Source: Methanothermococcus sp. Ax23 (lineage in GTDB: Archaea; AGJL01; Methanococci; Methanococcales; Methanococcaceae). From it: 64,000 nucleotides of DNA. The first letter of the stretch is position 1. Every line of letters starts with the position of its first letter. The translations under genes were made by a program, and so were the position numbers. The stretch spans positions 1,024,001 to 1,088,000 of the forward strand of contig NZ_CP157522.1 in assembly GCF_049075655.1 (NCBI RefSeq), in the 5' to 3' direction. Positions 12,265-52,192 of the stretch are shown here, piece by piece. The notes beneath the pieces are model-generated. The model was not told the origin of the DNA and ran no database searches. It saw only the letters and a list, made by a program, of their open reading frames with translations.

Positions 12265-12329
12265 AGCTGATTTGCTAATTATATTGTTAGCTGCATCGGT
12301 TGTTTTTATGATAGTTCCACCTCATTTAT

Positions 12330-12633
12330 CTAATGTCGGCGGGAAGTTTGATAAATTCCTTCGGAATTTATAAATGTCTTCGCTATCGCTCAGACATCCC
12401 CTTCCGTAAGGAGGGGATGAGGCCGACGAAAAATATAAATATTATGACATAATAAAATAAACGCATAAATGGGCGAAAACCAAGTCCATTCTATGCTATT
12501 TTCATGCACCTGCGGAAGGCGGGGGTGAGCCTGTGGAGAAGTGAGCCCCTACCTAGGTAGTTAATAACTACCGATGATGGCAAGCTCGTTCAGTGAAGCA
12601 GGAAGCCCCTTCCGTAAGGAAGGGTTACTTCAC
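12330..12633 (+). mobile_element. Non-autonomous IS200/IS605 derivative (family A, copy 1): left end, promoter-like region, omegaRNA-like scaffold and right end; no ORF
   Basis: Begins after TTTAT with CTAATGTCGGCGGGAAG; subterminal hairpins CCCCTTCCGTAAGGA(A)GGG; ends TTCAC; near-identical to 47337-47639. Confidence 0.88.
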
Positions 12634-13979
12634 CTTATTAGTCCCCATATTTTCGAATTTATAGCACCATAAACATCTTCTGCAAAGTTAATAAATCCAT
12701 CAAATCCAACATAAACAGTATCAGGAGCTCTACCATTTATGTATGGAATACCCATTTTATGAACCAATTCCTTAGTTTTACTATCGGATATAAACACATC
12801 TGGCTTACATTCCATCAGTGCCTTTTCCAATTCATAGGTATTTGGATTATCTATTATTATAGCACCTTTTGGAAGTTTTTTTACAATTTCTTCATAGTTT
12901 TCCTTATTTGCAAAGTATGTGGCAACACCCACCACTTCCATTCCGAGCTCATCCATTATTGGACCCATATAGTTGAGAGCTCTCTGAGCTCCGTGGCATA
13001 TAAATACCTTTTTGCCCTTTAATTCCTTTTTGTAAAAATTCAATTTTTCCTCGTTCTTTTTTAGATAGAAGTCAATTGTTTCGTTTATTTTTTCTTTATC
13101 AACATTTAGTATTTTTCCAATAGTTTCCAAAGCTTCACAGCAGTTCTTTATGCCGAAGAAGTTTGAAACAATGTATGGAACTTCATATACATTTCTCATC
13201 ATTTTGGCAAATTGTATGGAGCTCTTCATGCAATGGACAATATTTAATTTTGCATTATCCATAATTCTTATTTTATCGATTGTGGCATTTCCTGTAAATG
13301 AACATAAAACTCTTATTCCCATTTTGTTCAGCATATCTTCTATTACATTGGAACTTTTTACGCTGAAATCTCCTATTATATTCACATCATAGGGAGTAGG
13401 ATTTTTTAATTCCTTCGTAGCTATCAATTCGAAGAGCTTTTTATTTGCTATCATATGTCCCTTATTTTGAGTTTTTCCTTTAAATCCTGCACATTCAAAG
13501 GCGAGAACTGGTATATTTAATTTTGATTTTTTCAGCTCTTCATTGGCCTTTTTTACCACGGCATTTATATCATCTCCAATCAATGCAGGAAGGCAGGTTT
13601 CATAAACAAATATGGCATCTGGTTTAAATTCAGTGGCAACTTTAATTATGGCATCGTATAATTTTTTTTCACCGCCAAATATTACATTTTCTTCCTTCAT
13701 ATCTGTTGTAAAGCAATATGAATATGTGGAAGGTCTGTAATCCCATGAGTAATATGCACAACCGACATGGGAGTGAATAATATGGACCACATTTTTAATA
13801 TGGCTGTTAATGATAATCCTTGAACCGTGGAATGTGCATGACCTCTCTGAAAAGTCCCCCGGCTGCGTAGGTTCTTCACATGCAGGCACTATATTGTCAT
13901 TGCACTTAACGATACAATGGCCTATCCTGTCCTTTCTTCCTCCAATTTGATTCAATATTTCTGTGTCCATATTATTCAC
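12630..13979 (-). CDS. nifE: Nitrogenase FeMo-co scaffold subunit NifE
   Basis: ERSCTFHG, HSHVGCAYY, FTTDMKE..VIFGGEKKL, TCLPALIGDD, VHCMKS; stop codon supplied by the adjacent element. Confidence 0.93.
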   Translation of the reverse strand: MNNMDTEILNQIGGRKDRIGHCIVKCNDNIVPACEEPTQPGDFSERSCTFHGSRIIINSHIKNVVHIIHSHVGCAYYSWDYRPSTYSYCFTTDMKEENVIFGGEKKLYDAIIKVATEFKPDAIFVYETCLPALIGDDINAVVKKANEELKKSKLNIPVLAFECAGFKGKTQNKGHMIANKKLFELIATKELKNPTPYDVNIIGDFSVKSSNVIEDMLNKMGIRVLCSFTGNATIDKIRIMDNAKLNIVHCMKSSIQFAKMMRNVYEVPYIVSNFFGIKNCCEALETIGKILNVDKEKINETIDFYLKKNEEKLNFYKKELKGKKVFICHGAQRALNYMGPIMDELGMEVVGVATYFANKENYEEIVKKLPKGAIIIDNPNTYELEKALMECKPDVFISDSKTKELVHKMGIPYINGRAPDTVYVGFDGFINFAEDVYGAINSKIWGLIR

Positions 13980-27229: not shown

Positions 27230-27603
27230 CTGACCTACTCCAACGAGTGAACTCGTTGGGTTCTCGCTTACGGTAGTAAGCGAGCAACGAAATCACGAAG
27301 TGATTTCGTCTAATTTTAGTAGGGTTTAACCCTACACGGGTGGCCAAACCACTACCCCTATCCCCGTTTAGGAGATTCAGGGCTACCTTTTGAACTTCCA
27401 ACCACTACCAGCGGTAGAGTTTTCACTAACCCTACCCATAGATACTTGGACTGGTAGCGTTACTTACTATTAATCTTCTCATATTTATATTTTACTACTT
27501 ACTAGCCGATATAATGTCCGCCTCTCATCCAATCTCGTAAGAGATTTTACAAAACTATGTTTTGTATAACGATTAAAATCGTTGGCTTTCTCGGCGGTTT
27601 ATC
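27230..27603 (-). mobile_element. Non-autonomous, internally deleted derivative of the tnpB element at 50446-51905 (family B)
   Basis: Left end after TTAC nearly identical to 51820-51905; retains a tnpB internal fragment, the tnpB 3'/omegaRNA region and a right end ...GAGTAGGTCAG. Confidence 0.9.
27264..27314 (+). repeat. Double-hairpin micro-element nested in the right end of the family B element
   Basis: CGCTTACGGTAGTAAGCGAGCAACGAAATCACGAAGTGATTTCGTCTAATT is absent from the equivalent position at ~50480. Confidence 0.85.
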
Positions 27604-27655
27604 GTAAAAATAGCAAACCCTAACCTAAAAAACTAAAAAAAGGAAATATTTAAAT

Positions 27656-30798: not shown

Positions 30799-31100
30799 CT
30801 AATGTCGGCGGGAAGACACCTCCCGTAAGGGGGATGAAGGTTCCGACAGAAAATTATAAATATCGCTATCTAAATATAACATAACTGTTGCTACTTGTGA
30901 TTAACTAAAACTACAAACCATTTAGATTTGGACTGGCTCCATAAGGAGTTTCAGGTATGCTAGATGTGGTAAGCATAGCTCGGGATTCCAATAATGGATA
31001 CTGAGTAATGGGCTTGTGAATAGCCCAGTGAGGGTGAGGATAGTATAACTCCGATGACAGACCTCACGAAGCCCATCCCGTAAGGGAAGGGGTGATTCAC
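30799..31100 (+). mobile_element. Non-autonomous IS200/IS605 derivative (family A ends, different internal scaffold)
   Basis: TTTAT|CTAATGTCGGCGGGAAG left end, CCCGTAAGGG hairpins, ends TTCAC; interior unrelated to copies 1 and 3. Confidence 0.85.
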
Positions 31101-31888
31101 ATTAACTTCATTTGTATAGATTTTTTATTTTTATTATTCTTATTAGCTTTATTATTTCTATTGCTTTTATTTTCATCTTCAAATTCTTTCAATATGTTTT
31201 TGGAAGTTTTCCAACTTTTTCGAGCTATCTCAGGGAGTTCCCCATGTTCTTTAACATAATTTTTTAAATAATTTAGGGTAATTTTATCACTGGGGTATCC
31301 ACTACCTATCTCGCCGTATATTTTTTTGTAATTGTCAATGATTCTATCTCTAATAACCTTTGCTATGATTGACGCCGCAGAGACGATTTTATATTTATCA
31401 TCCGCTTTATGTTCGGCTATTATTTTAATGTTTTCATTATATACTACCAATTTAGATTTTATTTGGTTTGAAAATGCCTTTTCATTACTACTACATGCGT
31501 CAATGTATATATTTATTTTTTTATTGTTATCTACCTTATAGTTTTTATCCTTATAGTCCTTATATTCTTCCTTTAAAACGCTGTTTATCAGTTTTGAAAA
31601 TGCCATCAATTCAATTTTATTTAAGTTGGTTTTCTCCATCATTTTGTCTATGTCCTTTGCTTCAAGGATTATGCTCTTAACTTCATAATTATTCATAATG
31701 ATTTTGTAGAGCTCCTCTCTTCTATTCTTACTCAATCTCTTACTATCCTTTAATCCCAATTCATCAAGTTTTTTTAAGTCCTTTTCAGTAGCTTTAACAA
31801 GTGCAACCACCATGGGACCTAAAACAGGACCTCTTCCAGCTTCATCTAAACCTATTATTATCCCATTATTTTCATTGCCATTATACAT
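31097..31888 (-). CDS. rnhB: Ribonuclease HII
   Basis: GLDEAGRGPVLGPM, LKDSK, VSAASIIAKV.RD, GSGYPSD; C-terminal PIP-box-like QMKL; stop supplied by the element. Confidence 0.96.
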   Translation of the reverse strand: MYNGNENNGIIIGLDEAGRGPVLGPMVVALVKATEKDLKKLDELGLKDSKRLSKNRREELYKIIMNNYEVKSIILEAKDIDKMMEKTNLNKIELMAFSKLINSVLKEEYKDYKDKNYKVDNNKKINIYIDACSSNEKAFSNQIKSKLVVYNENIKIIAEHKADDKYKIVSAASIIAKVIRDRIIDNYKKIYGEIGSGYPSDKITLNYLKNYVKEHGELPEIARKSWKTSKNILKEFEDENKSNRNNKANKNNKNKKSIQMKLM

Positions 31889-32218
31889 TTTAGACCTCAT
31901 TAATAATAAATAAAATTAAAAATACAAAAAATTAATATACTTTAAGATAATATTATAATTTGCAGTTGATTTGGTGATACTGCATTAGACAATCCCACCT
32001 ATAAGGCGGTCGTATGGAGTAGCCATCAGGTTTCAATGAACATGCGATTTTCCAATGGTGGGTATATTTTATGTCTTAGTAATTTATTAATTTTATATGA
32101 TATAATTATAGCACAATTACAATTTATTATCAATCATCACTTTTTTATAAAGACTTTATTATGTTATTTTTATTTCTATTAAAAATATTAAAATCCATTT
32201 ACAAATAGAGGTGAAACT

Positions 32219-47262: not shown

Positions 47263-47873
47263 TATTTTTCCCTCCGTTTCCTATTTTGTGGATATATTGT
47301 GATTAAATTAATAGACAATGGTTCTACTGATTTTATCTAATGTCGGCGGGAAGACCCTTCCGTAAGGGATTGAATAAAAATCCTGAAGGGATTTTTATAG
47401 CCCTCCACTTCGCTACGGGGGATGAGAGCCGACAAAAAATATAAATATTATGACGTAATAAAATAAACATATAAATGGGCGAAAACCAAGCTCATTCTAC
47501 ACTATTTTCATGCACCTGCGGAAGGCGGGGGTGAGCCTGTGGAGAAGTGAGCCCCTACCTAGGTAGTTAATAACTACTGGTGATGGCAAGCTCGTTCAGT
47601 GAAGCAGGAAGCCCCTTCCGTAAGGAAGGGGCACTTCACACTAATAACTACTACAATATCATGCTCCTCGCTGTTCTCATAATATACTTTAAATTTTCCA
47701 TCCTTTTGTTTTAGTATTCCCACGGGTTTATTTTCAGTTATGATTTTAAGTATTTCTTCTTCATCAGGTAAATCCTCTTCCCTAAGTTCCAATCTTGTTT
47801 CATAGTGTTTAGTTTTATTAAAATTCTTCTTTTTAGAAGTAAATAGATAAGATAATACCTCATCAATATCCAT
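47262..47873 (-). pseudogene. DUF4258-like putative toxin interrupted by the family A element
   Basis: TKHYETR motif; excising 47337-47639 gives ...VVVIS-IKSVEPLSINLITIYPQNRKRREK*, with its TAA overlapping the next ATG. Confidence 0.75.
47337..47639 (+). mobile_element. Non-autonomous IS200/IS605 derivative (family A, copy 3)
   Basis: TTTAT|CTAATGTCGGCGGGAAG ... GCACTTCAC; near-identical to 12330-12633; no target duplication. Confidence 0.9.
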
Positions 47874-50168: not shown

Positions 50169-50444
50169 TTATTCAAAAGTCTTTTTTAATGGCTCTAAAT
50201 GTGTAGATAGTGTGTTAATTACATCATTTAGCTTTTCAAAGATTGACTCTTTATCTACCTTATTTGAACTAATGAATTTGTTTAAATCAACAATATAGGA
50301 AGTTTCTGCAATTATATAATTTAAATCATGATTAACCTTTACACTTCCAAACATGGGCACTTTAAACATGTTTTTAAAATCCGTATGATACATTTTTATA
50401 ATATCCTCAGGCTCTACAACTTCATTTTTAATTATTGCCTGCAT
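50169..50444 (-). pseudogene. Probable 3' remnant of a gene disrupted by the tnpB element
   Basis: ORF starts 2 nt after the right end, with no RBS; degenerate coding-like sequence lies beyond the left end (51906-52015). Confidence 0.45.
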
Positions 50445-50480
50445 TCTGACCTACTCCCACGACTAAAGTCGTGGGGTTCT

Positions 50481-51742
50481 TTAGCAGGGTCTAACCCTAC
50501 ATGGGTTGCCAAGCCCACTACCCCTATCTCCGTTTAGGAGATTCAGGGCTACCTTATGCGATACTTTTTTTAAAATATTCAAAGCCCCGTTAATGTCTGC
50601 ATTCAAAACCATGCCACACTCACTACACACATACAAACCCCTATACTTCCTATTACTCTTTTTAACTACACCACAATTACTGCAAGTTTGAGAAGTATAA
50701 GCTTCATTAACCTGTTCTACTGTTAATCCCTTTTCCTCTGCCTTATATGTTATCATACTTACTAACCTACCAAAAGGTATTCTATGCAATTGCTGATTAA
50801 CCCTATCTCCAATGTCAATACTTGAAATGCCTTTGTTTAACTCGCCGATTACAATCCTTGAAACTTTGTTATCCACTGCAAAATCGATAATCATTTTACT
50901 TATTTTATGTAGATAATCCTTAGTATAATTCTTTTCCCTTACTGTTAAGCGGGATAATCGTTTATTATATTTTAACTCTTGCTTTGTTAGGGTAGATTGG
51001 ATTTTTCCTTTACTTTTAGCAAACCATCGGAATTTAGAAATTAACCTTCTTCCATCGTAGATTACTGCACTGCCCGTATTGGTTACTACTGTTGCTAAAT
51101 TCTTAATTCCTAAATCAATACTTAGTATATTACCTTCTTTGATAGGTTCTTGAATTACTGGTTTCTTATGGATTAAGTGAAGTATGTAGTAGGTTATCCC
51201 ATAGATGGTCTGCGGAACTATCTCAACTTCTTTAACCTGCATGGTATCAAGCGGTAGAGTTTTCGATAAATCTACCCATAAGTACTTGGACTTGATACCA
51301 TGCTTCTCTTTGAGATAGTTTTTAGTTTGTTTAGATAATGATAACCTTAACTTATTGCCTATGATTTTGAAACCTTGCTTCTTCCATTTTACGGGAAAGT
51401 GTCCATCTTTTGGTTGGTATCGTGGTCTTTTAGTGTGCTGTTTGAAGTAGTTTTGCCATGCAATCGCTTGCGTAGCAAGCGAGCAACGAAAACCGAAGGT
51501 TTTCGTCTAATTTGAAGTTTTTGACATACTGCCTGTGCTGACTGTGAGTGCAGGTTTTTAAACCAGAAGTTGTTCTTCATTTGAACATCTATTTTATTTG
51601 GTTTAATATTTCGCTGTATTACTTCGTAGTTGGATGTATTCCAGAGTTTTGATGCTGAATAGGTTAAATGGTTTATGATTGTTAATTGTTCATTATTTAA
51701 ACTTCTGGTTAGGTTTATTGTCAGCACTCTGGTTACTTGCAT
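50481..51742 (-). pseudogene. tnpB: RNA-guided endonuclease TnpB (~404 aa) frameshifted by a 47-bp insertion
   Basis: RuvC motifs IDLG, IGEL and NADING; Zn finger CSNC..CSEC; removing 51465-51511 restores ...KLQIAWQNYFK... Confidence 0.93.
51465..51511 (+). repeat. Double-hairpin micro-element inserted in tnpB
   Basis: CGCTTGCGTAGCAAGCGAGCAACGAAAACCGAAGGTTTTCGTCTAAT. Confidence 0.9.
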
Positions 51743-52192
51743 GGAATTCACCAAATTTATATATGCCATTATTCTAATTACACTCATATTATGTAGTGAA
51801 GTATATAAAAAAATGATGTCCGCCTATCATCCAATCTCATAAGAGATTTTACAAAACCTTGTTTTGTATAACGATTAAAATCGTTGGCTTTCTCGGCGGT
51901 TTATCGTAAAAAATTAATTTCTTTGAAATTTTATGTCACCATACGCTTCGCACACTATAATTTAGAATATCTCTAATATTCATTTTTCCGAATAAGACTC
52001 AGCTTATATATTCCATCCTATGAATTGAGAATATTTTTTTATTAATGTTAATAAATTTGACGAAAATAATAACGTATATATAATACTATTTATTTATTCC
52101 GTAATATATGATATTATTTAATATTACACTGTTGCAACATGTGCATGTCTTTTCATTATATACTTGATGTTATTTATAAAACTGGTGGTTGT

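Follow-up and report, generated by a model that had tools for sequence, protein, structure and literature searches.

Protein-free IS200/IS605-type elements with candidate TnpB guide-RNA scaffolds in the archaeon Methanothermococcus sp. Ax23

Gene-less IS200/IS605 elements that encode guide RNAs are already published, and so are stand-alone guide RNAs that act in trans. Elements resembling palindrome-associated transposable elements (PATEs) in Geobacillus stearothermophilus "often encode" guide RNAs to be used in trans by TnpB, according to Meers et al. (PMC10055086). A PATE with IStron ends is described from Clostridioides difficile (10.1101/2023.11.20.567912). Mobilised guide RNAs that stand alone have been described too, with evidence of their function in trans (PMC10691335, introduction, on Altae-Tran et al. 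2021). A literature search for TnpB guide RNAs in Methanococcales brought up no paper on such elements, judged by titles and the openings of abstracts. Here we discuss three elements, e1, e2 and e3, in a stretch of 64,000 nucleotides of the genome of Methanothermococcus sp. Ax23 (NZ_CP157522.1, G000:C1:1024001-1088000), which is called the window; coordinates without prefix are window positions. At a probability of roughly 0.7 we consider them to be non-autonomous IS200/IS605 miniature elements (minis) of the PATE type, which have kept a promoter and a guide scaffold and the RNA of which is used in trans by TnpB. They would represent a clean archaeal case of a known class, in which the empty sites are exact, the parental elements reside in the genome itself and the native promoter is conserved.

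The minis share essential features with PATEs. They lack an open reading frame (ORF), have both IS200/IS605 ends in common with tnpB elements of the same genome and insert without a scar at a fixed motif. As with PATEs, it is the guide-RNA scaffold that has been kept, which leaves TnpB to be supplied in trans. Unlike PATEs, they live in an archaeal host, their promoter is an archaeal one inherited from tnpB, composed of a B recognition element (BRE) and a TATA box, and their left ends are expanded by nested hairpin modules of 20-50 nt. The genome has no Y1 TnpA. The numbers differ too: in the own genome the minis outnumber the tnpB-bearing copies 8 to 6, and in the relatives 5 of 23 scaffold matches have a substantial TnpB upstream. 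With the stand-alone omegaRNAs they have in common that guide loci are mobilised without effector or transposase in genomes that also contain effector-bearing loci. Those RNAs, however, are reported to work in trans, whereas here the trans function is predicted and the effector copies matching e1 and e3 are broken.

The own genome (G000) comprises 1.67 Mb on two contigs, has 32% G+C and is 98.9% complete; it was compared with 40 relatives (e.g., G001, G003, G010, G012, G013). Further names are m334 and x497 for two minis of a second type, while F-names stand for tnpB-bearing elements. An earlier reading of the window, made from its sequence only, had claimed three protein-free elements at 12330, 30799 and 47337, inserted 3' of TTTAT without target-site duplication. 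The elements proved real, the end of e3 being 47639 and not 47640:

12330..12633, plus strand: e1, 304-bp protein-free IS200/IS605-type mini with e1-type scaffold
30799..31100, plus strand: e2, 302-bp mini of a subtype other than that of e1 and e3
31004-31100, plus strand: scaffold core of e2, as matched by the covariance model R1 (see below)
47337..47639, plus strand: e3, 303-bp mini with e1-type scaffold (47509-47639) and BRE/TATA box (about 47430-47447)

All three have TTTAT directly 5', start with CTAATGTCGGCGGGAAG and end with TTCAC. The first 25 nt or so are common to them (repeat search, family D6), and the right 219 nt of e1 and e3 are 93% identical (repeat search, family D1). The interior of e2 differs from that of e1 and e3; the ends alone are common.

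The mode of insertion can be read from unoccupied sites in congeners. In G003, the e1 site runs ...CATTTAT|CTTATCAATCTCC..., and the flanks of e2 meet exactly at G003:C9 16522/16523; the site of e3 is empty in G012 (...GATTTTAT|ACTAATAAC...). No target is duplicated at e1, e2 or e3, and TTTAT remains in the unoccupied sites. The exact empty sites therefore reveal precise insertions without target-site duplication, as the sequence-only reading had it. They are fairly recent, are shown by the congeners to postdate the split from them, and follow the scarless peel-and-paste route. TTTAT makes up 0.6% of the pentamers of the genome, yet it adjoins 9 of the 12 family members with a placeable left end (binomial tail 2e-18); other left-adjacent motifs, counted within the same 12 members, are TTTAA (3) and TATAT (1).

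The organisation of the minis is exemplified by e1:

12325..12329, plus strand: target-adjacent motif TTTAT, retained in the G003 empty site; its minus strand holds the original TAA stop of a nifE-like gene
12330..12427, plus strand: left end with outer stem GTCGGC (12335-12340) / GCCGAC (12422-12427), as seen by comparison with uninterrupted left ends
12347-12393 and 12398-12416, plus strand: nested 47-nt hairpin module and subterminal hairpin, both inside the outer stem
12427..12441, plus strand: BRE/TATA-like box CGAAAAATATAAATA at the inner edge of the left end
12442..12467, plus strand: hypervariable spacer between TATA and predicted transcript start
12468..12490, plus strand: 5' hairpin of the predicted RNA
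12503..12633, plus strand: core of the omegaRNA-like guide-RNA scaffold
12509-12523, plus strand: stem-loop SL-a
12530-12533 with 12599-12602, plus strand: closing stem, enclosing a kink-turn-like motif and a variable hairpin
12602-12605, 12606-12624 and 12629-12633, plus strand: guide tetranucleotide GAAG, right-end hairpin and cleavage motif TTCAC
12634..12653, plus strand: would-be guide, defined by position only, in the 3' flank of the right end and antisense to the last nifE-like codons

Imperfect subterminal palindromes are present at both ends, in e1 as the hairpins 12398-12416 and 12606-12624. TTAT/AAGA on the left and TCAC/GAAG on the right are the cleavage and guide tetranucleotides, presumably in the geometry usual for such ends. 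The left pair is found in e2, e3 and other uninterrupted left ends. In e1, the four bases beside the left hairpin are CAGA or AGAC, not AAGA, because the left end harbours a nested hairpin module of 47 nt, which displaces the guide tetranucleotide. The two pairs that the sequence-only reading had assigned thus stand in the IS608 register, except on the left side of e1. The end rules of IS608 are TTAC/AAAG on the left and TCAA/GAAT on the right, according to PMC3201880 and PMC5934647. What differs from ISDra2 and IS608 is the target motif, TTTAT or TTTAA, and the right cleavage site, which is 4 nt and not 10 nt away from the hairpin foot.

A search of the own genome for the ...TTCAC-type right end yielded 14 loci, BLAST, motif scan and covariance model being concordant. 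Six of them carry tnpB. The remaining eight are protein-free minis; the three of the window, although real, had been taken for the whole set. None of the eight contains an ORF of more than 60 amino acids; the longest open frame on their element strand has 27-79 amino acids, and none is TnpB-like.

e1, e3, C1:706041-706346, C1:986427-986782, C1:1154320-1154574: the five e1-type minis
C1:334642-334980 (m334), C1:497440-497761 (x497): the two minis of the second type
e2: the eighth mini
G000:C1:1424256-1425745: F1424, tnpB-bearing, 411 amino acids, intact
F1308-type: tnpB-bearing, three copies with open frames
F438 and F913: tnpB-bearing, tnpB split into 279 + 130 amino acids by an identical 50-nt double-hairpin insert

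The TnpB domain (PF07282) is matched 21 times in the own genome; six of these matches go with the ...TTCAC right end, the other 15 with other families. Since the minis have their ends in common with these six tnpB elements, their description as non-autonomous IS200/IS605 cassettes holds. The same can be said of the view that their GC-rich segment (G+C 0.52-0.57 in the scaffolds versus 0.32 in the genome) is omegaRNA-like, as homology links it to the 3' ends of tnpB elements in the own genome. The scaffolds of the minis align to the tnpB 3' ends of F1424, the F1308-type and F438/F913, where they overlap or follow the tnpB stop codon; the overlap with the 3' end of tnpB is known from ISDra2 and IS608. 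The last 130 nt or so of e2 are 81.5% identical to the 3' end of F1424, the similarity setting in within the final ~65 nt of the tnpB frame. m334 and x497 match the 3' end of the F1308-type from the codons ...NILKSGLGE onward, their variable hairpin being shortened, and have the TTTAA motif in common with these elements. The e1-type minis share with F438 and F913 a 29-nt block with SL-a plus the terminal hairpin. From 5' to 3', the common architecture consists of a 5-bp SL-a, the closing stem CCUG/CAGG or an equivalent, AAGC, the right-end hairpin, 3-4 nt and TTCAC. In all scaffold types the closing stem encloses the kink-turn-like motif and the variable hairpin. At least three independent deletion lineages can be distinguished, and each retains the parental left end, the promoter and the scaffold.

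The F1308-type TnpB aligns to the ISDra2 TnpB (PDB 8bf8/8exa) over nearly its full length (E 3e-48), and the RuvC motifs DLG, EDLN and DRD as well as zinc-finger cysteines are visible. The TnpB of F1424 scores 184 bits, which, as with the F1308-type, is above the cut-off of NCBIfam guided_TnpB; it also passes the Pfam TnpB model, while a sequence search of the PDB with it returned no match. Intact cognate TnpB is thus encoded in the own genome by F1424 for e2 and by the three F1308-type copies for m334 and x497. The TTTAA motif of the latter group recalls SisTnpB1 of Sulfolobus islandicus, an archaeal IS200/IS605-type TnpB with a 5'-TTTAA motif (10.1101/2023.03.06.531077). SisTnpB1, however, comes from another phylum, and the work on it deals with a nuclease-bearing element and not with minis. 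For a thermophile-like methanogen lineage, the scaffold, the TTTAT or TTTAA target motif and a set of candidate nucleases are thereby defined, and trials as compact editors would be conceivable.

A box such as CGAAAAATATAAATA occurs at the inner edge of the left end in every family member. In the full-length elements it is located about 50 nt upstream of the tnpB start and is, for this reason, regarded as the tnpB promoter that deletion has fused to the scaffold. It also resembles the tRNA promoter consensus of the own genome: in 9 of 36 tRNA upstream regions, counted manually, a TATA box (TTTATATA or GTATATATA) comes at most a few bases after CGAAA. On both grounds the A-rich motif was correctly taken for BRE/TATA-like.

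How selection treats promoter and scaffold may be judged from an alignment of the five e1-type copies, which extends from TATA to TTCAC over 205 columns. Variable columns number 0 of 13 in the TATA box, 20 of 26 in the spacer, 8 of 40 in the 5' hairpin plus linker, 5 of 95 in the scaffold core and 7 of 31 in the right-end hairpin plus tip; spacer and scaffold core differ with p = 2.6e-13 (Fisher). Five substitutions fall into predicted stems, and there pairing is kept through G-U, on the plus strand only. In the 5' hairpin, all three variable stem positions still pair via G-U on that strand. One single-base deletion breaks a stem pair, and the right-end hairpin of one copy shows a full compensatory swap. 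A fixed promoter, a free spacer and a fixed RNA therefore argue that the guide RNA is still under selection after the loss of the nuclease gene. The pattern looks like that expected of a promoter-driven RNA gene and argues against simple decay, although gene conversion among the copies could contribute to it.

The alternative of simple decay would make the minis inert deletion relics, i.e., dead remnants like miniature inverted-repeat transposable elements, in which the scaffold was spared by chance near the right end and is neither transcribed nor used. That the own genome has no Y1 TnpA, that e1 and e3 have a disrupted cognate TnpB and that the right-end hairpin of e1 is weakened would suit such relics. 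An invariant TATA box and a hardly variable scaffold core with a freely varying spacer in between would not, nor would stem changes that are wobble-compatible on one strand only. Moreover, at least three independent lineages and a family found across species keep the promoter-plus-scaffold design. We consider decay unlikely.

An alignment of all 14 scaffolds by MAFFT misaligned the 5' half across subtypes; it was replaced by an alignment of seven sequences (the five e1-type copies, F438 and F913) and by the covariance model R1 built from it, with 17 pairs. In the own genome, R1 recovered the seven other scaffolds, which belong to other subtypes (E 3e-12 to 4e-3), no further match falling below E 0.01. 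In the 40 relatives it found 29 matches at E <= 0.001, distributed over five genomes (G003 11, G010 10, G012 5, G013 2, G001 1). For covariation 37 matches were collected, giving 34 distinct rows. Their paired cells amount to 93.1%. Shuffles give 75.9%, none of 500 attaining the observed figure, and slid partners 40-60%. Ten of the 17 pairs, among them all five of SL-a, have changed on both sides, and three helices covary. The right hairpin is paired to 92% across the 34 sequences, with both-side changes in four of its eight pairs. The scaffold, for which a covariance model had been proposed at the outset, is thus constrained and covarying.

The relatives also show that scaffolds without a nuclease gene are common in the genus. 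Of their matches, 23 were examined, with up to 1.5 kb of upstream sequence. Apart from the five with a substantial TnpB match mentioned above, four have a C-terminal match of 41-47 amino acids only and 14 have none; three of the 23 loci offer just 175-660 nt upstream, and one of these three is counted among the 14. One mini family, which has a scaffold of 87 nt, TTTAA as its motif and a perfect TTTATATA box, is nearly identical from promoter to TTCAC in G003, G010, G012 and G013, its left ends differing by nested hairpin modules.

Of course, a conserved fold could also serve the DNA. The segment would then be folded as single-stranded DNA for excision and integration by TnpA and would have no role as RNA. 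The ends of IS200/IS605 elements do act as single-stranded DNA hairpins, the right-end hairpin shows compensatory changes, and G-T pairs are tolerated in single-stranded DNA too. Yet in IS608 the right end can be trimmed to RE45, which consists of guide tetranucleotide, hairpin and cleavage site, and the robust complex is still obtained, whereas 95-170 nt are kept here. SL-a and the kink-turn stem lie outside the minimal end and covary nevertheless; they resemble a known guide-RNA core, and a conserved promoter box is retained upstream. A role confined to DNA is very improbable.

The guide-RNA core in question is RAGATH-18 (RF03064), the core of the IS607 TnpB guide RNA, or reRNA (PMC11061315). 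At a relaxed threshold, Rfam reported for the window RAGATH-18 (E 0.09) and a C/D-box small RNA (E 7.4), the latter being taken as chance. The RAGATH-18 consensus is matched at its two ends by the closing stem with the kink-turn-like motif (CCUGUGGAG ... UGAAGCAGGAA). The score is 22 bits in e1 and up to 28.8 elsewhere in the genome, the gathering score being 44.9, so that the likeness may be regarded as a lead, not as membership. Membership in IS607/RAGATH-18 was considered and rejected in view of the sub-threshold scores, the IS200/IS605-type ends, target motif and hairpins, and the fact that the serine-recombinase loci lie next to other TnpBs. The own genome has two serine recombinases (C1:46898, C1:1511943), both of the IS607-type and beside TnpBs of other families with other 3' ends. 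These loci, G000:C1:46898-48455 and 1510781-1512338, each contain a serine recombinase and a TnpB frame of 438 amino acids; one of the recombinases has an in-frame TAG.

The sequence of events that we favour would be as follows. Elements of the same family that contain tnpB only (IS1341-like) would have suffered internal deletions. What they kept would be the two subterminal hairpins with the cleavage and guide tetranucleotides that Y1 TnpA needs, the parental tnpB promoter with its archaeal BRE/TATA box, situated where the left end meets the interior, and a structured right-end segment of ~95-170 nt, presumably the guide-RNA scaffold of TnpB in the parent. The promoter would drive an RNA of ~170-190 nt, in e1 starting near 12463-12465 and running through the scaffold into the flank, the first ~16-20 nt past TTCAC serving as guide. 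TnpB from a full-length element would load this RNA in trans and would cut copies of the locus that lack the element (TTTAT + guide). Recombination with an occupied chromosome copy would then restore the element, as in the published homing model of TnpB. For e2 the intact cognate TnpB of the genome could do the job, for e1 and e3 only the disrupted cognate or a related intact TnpB subtype.

Several observations weigh against this reading. Promoter use, transcript ends, guide length and TnpB loading are inferred. The Y1 TnpA (PF01797) has no match in the own genome at 98.9% completeness, and without it present-day mobility and the need for homing are doubtful, as homing would have no excised sites to repair, and the elements of this genome are probably not mobile now. 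Y1 matches occur in 7 of the 40 relatives and, among the five that bear the scaffold, in G010 and G003 only, where they are fragments or pseudogenes (split frames in G010, a 44-amino-acid frame in G003). Open Y1 frames of 144 amino acids are present in G024, G032 and G015. The TnpB closest to e1 and e3, that of F438 and F913, is split in both copies, the variable hairpin of the e1-type differs from theirs, and a full-length parent with an e1-type scaffold was found neither in the own genome nor in the 40 relatives searched. The right-end hairpin of e1 has lost its closing pair. Rfam gives no match at gathering score in the whole window, which also sets the scaffold apart from ISDra2 and IS608. 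Finally, the covariation figures lean towards structure, because the alignment was fitted to the R1 model and its rows are related, and the right-end hairpin would covary for TnpA binding alone. The search for a cognate tnpA and tnpB, which had been suggested as a check, has produced a divided answer: six tnpB elements with these ends, no Y1 tnpA, and for e1 and e3 a closest tnpB that is split.

A tnpA of the Y1 type does occur with these ends in G010. At locus L074 (G010:C1:317642-320842, about 235-2045 of the locus, minus strand) an element with the same ends consists of tnpA(Y1) and tnpB. Its tnpA is broken by a stop and by frameshifts after the HUH motif; then follow an open tnpB of 424 amino acids and the scaffold. 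No other tnpA was found linked to the family ends, and the family is so recognised as a true IS200/IS605 lineage. The question raised is how elements can be polymorphic between species without an intact transposase in sight.

Every would-be guide 16-mer is unique in the genome and matches its own flank only, and for no guide is there a second site of motif plus guide in the genome. The first 12 nt of one guide have 11 genomic matches, which reflect chance in a low-complexity sequence. Unique guides without a second site fit homing at the own site and not a repertoire aimed elsewhere; the 'dispersed guide repertoire' of the sequence-only reading reduces to simple homing logic. A bolder version of homing is quite unlikely, though worth stating. 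The minis would persist and spread as transposase-independent 'guide-only gene drives', in that a master-copy TnpB cuts unoccupied alleles and recombination converts them; such alleles could be carried by incoming DNA or, in a polyploid methanogen, by further copies of the chromosome. The idea derives from guide-only cassettes that equal or outnumber the nuclease genes in the genus, are conserved across species and differ in their insertions between species, and from the lack of an intact Y1 transposase in the own genome and the five scaffold-bearing relatives.

The insertions have consequences for their neighbours. On the minus strand beside e1 lies a nif cluster with nifH, two small ORFs and nifD-, nifK-, nifE- and nifN-like genes; the products of nifH and the nifD-like gene score above curated cut-offs, while E and N are assigned by family-level scores and gene order.

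12630..13979, minus strand: nifE-like gene, the present TGA stop of which (12630-12632) comes from the TTCAC end of e1

Where the site is empty, the nifE-like gene ends AGA TAA. e1 entered within the last sense codon (AG|A TAA -> AG|G TGA), and the protein is unchanged because the TTCAC end provides a new stop after a synonymous last codon. On the opposite strand the TTCAC right end reads GTGAA and replaces the target ATAAA (12629-12633, 31096-31100). Because of this replacement, a TAA stop within TTTAT on the minus strand becomes an in-frame TGA. Likewise, the RNase HII gene (31097-31900, minus strand) takes its stop from the TTCAC end of e2, at the expense of a few C-terminal residues. e3 sits inside the 3' part of an ORF of 99 amino acids (47574-47873, minus strand), the C-terminus of which it replaces. 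For annotation, three odd intergenic repeats are thereby explained, one of them as having rewritten the nifE-like stop without a change of the protein.

Gene positions and strand bear out that e1 points, in antisense orientation, into the nifE-like gene at its 3' end. Read on the minus strand, e1 interrupts an apparent operon between its nifE-like and its nifN-like gene with 304 nt that comprise strong hairpins and a single T5 run, and it might, judging from these features, attenuate downstream nif expression. One could go further and see in e1 a regulatory RNA recruited by the host, an antisense or terminator element of the nif operon instead of a transposon guide; its place in the operon, its antisense orientation and the hairpins and T5 run in nif-sense direction would fit. 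The insertion, however, is absent from the congeners examined, with an exact empty site in G003, sister copies sit at unrelated genes (RNase HII, a small ORF), the design is common to the whole transposon family, and none of the TnpBs examined looks nuclease-dead. Recruitment by the host is extremely improbable.

A few side observations may be added. The window contains a fourth mini (27230-27610, minus strand), which derives from a second, more abundant TnpB family with ends ...GGAGTAGGTCAG. Its identity to a tnpB element 23 kb away (about 50440-51912, minus strand) amounts to 95% in the left end and 90% in the 3' scaffold, and the AAAATATAAATA box is kept. As box and scaffold are both preserved, the promoter-plus-scaffold design of minis recurs in another family. 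The left-end motif of this second family is found 25 times in the genome, right ends of its type 16 times.

The hairpin modules, finally, are AT-rich, ~20-50 nt long, have loops such as CTTCGG, CGAAG or CAAAG and are nested in the left ends of elements (12347-12393, 47368-47417). In one case such a module sits in the SL-a loop of a scaffold. Others lie within the tnpB of F438 (G000:C1 about 439350-439400) and F913, where they cause the frameshift, or occur elsewhere, alone or in tandem units of ~50 nt. Further examples come from G000:C1:195881-195976 and from locus L115 of G010. Perfect hairpins with a stem of >= 9, at least two G/C and a loop of 3-6 number 241 in the own genome versus 49 in a Markov-1 control.

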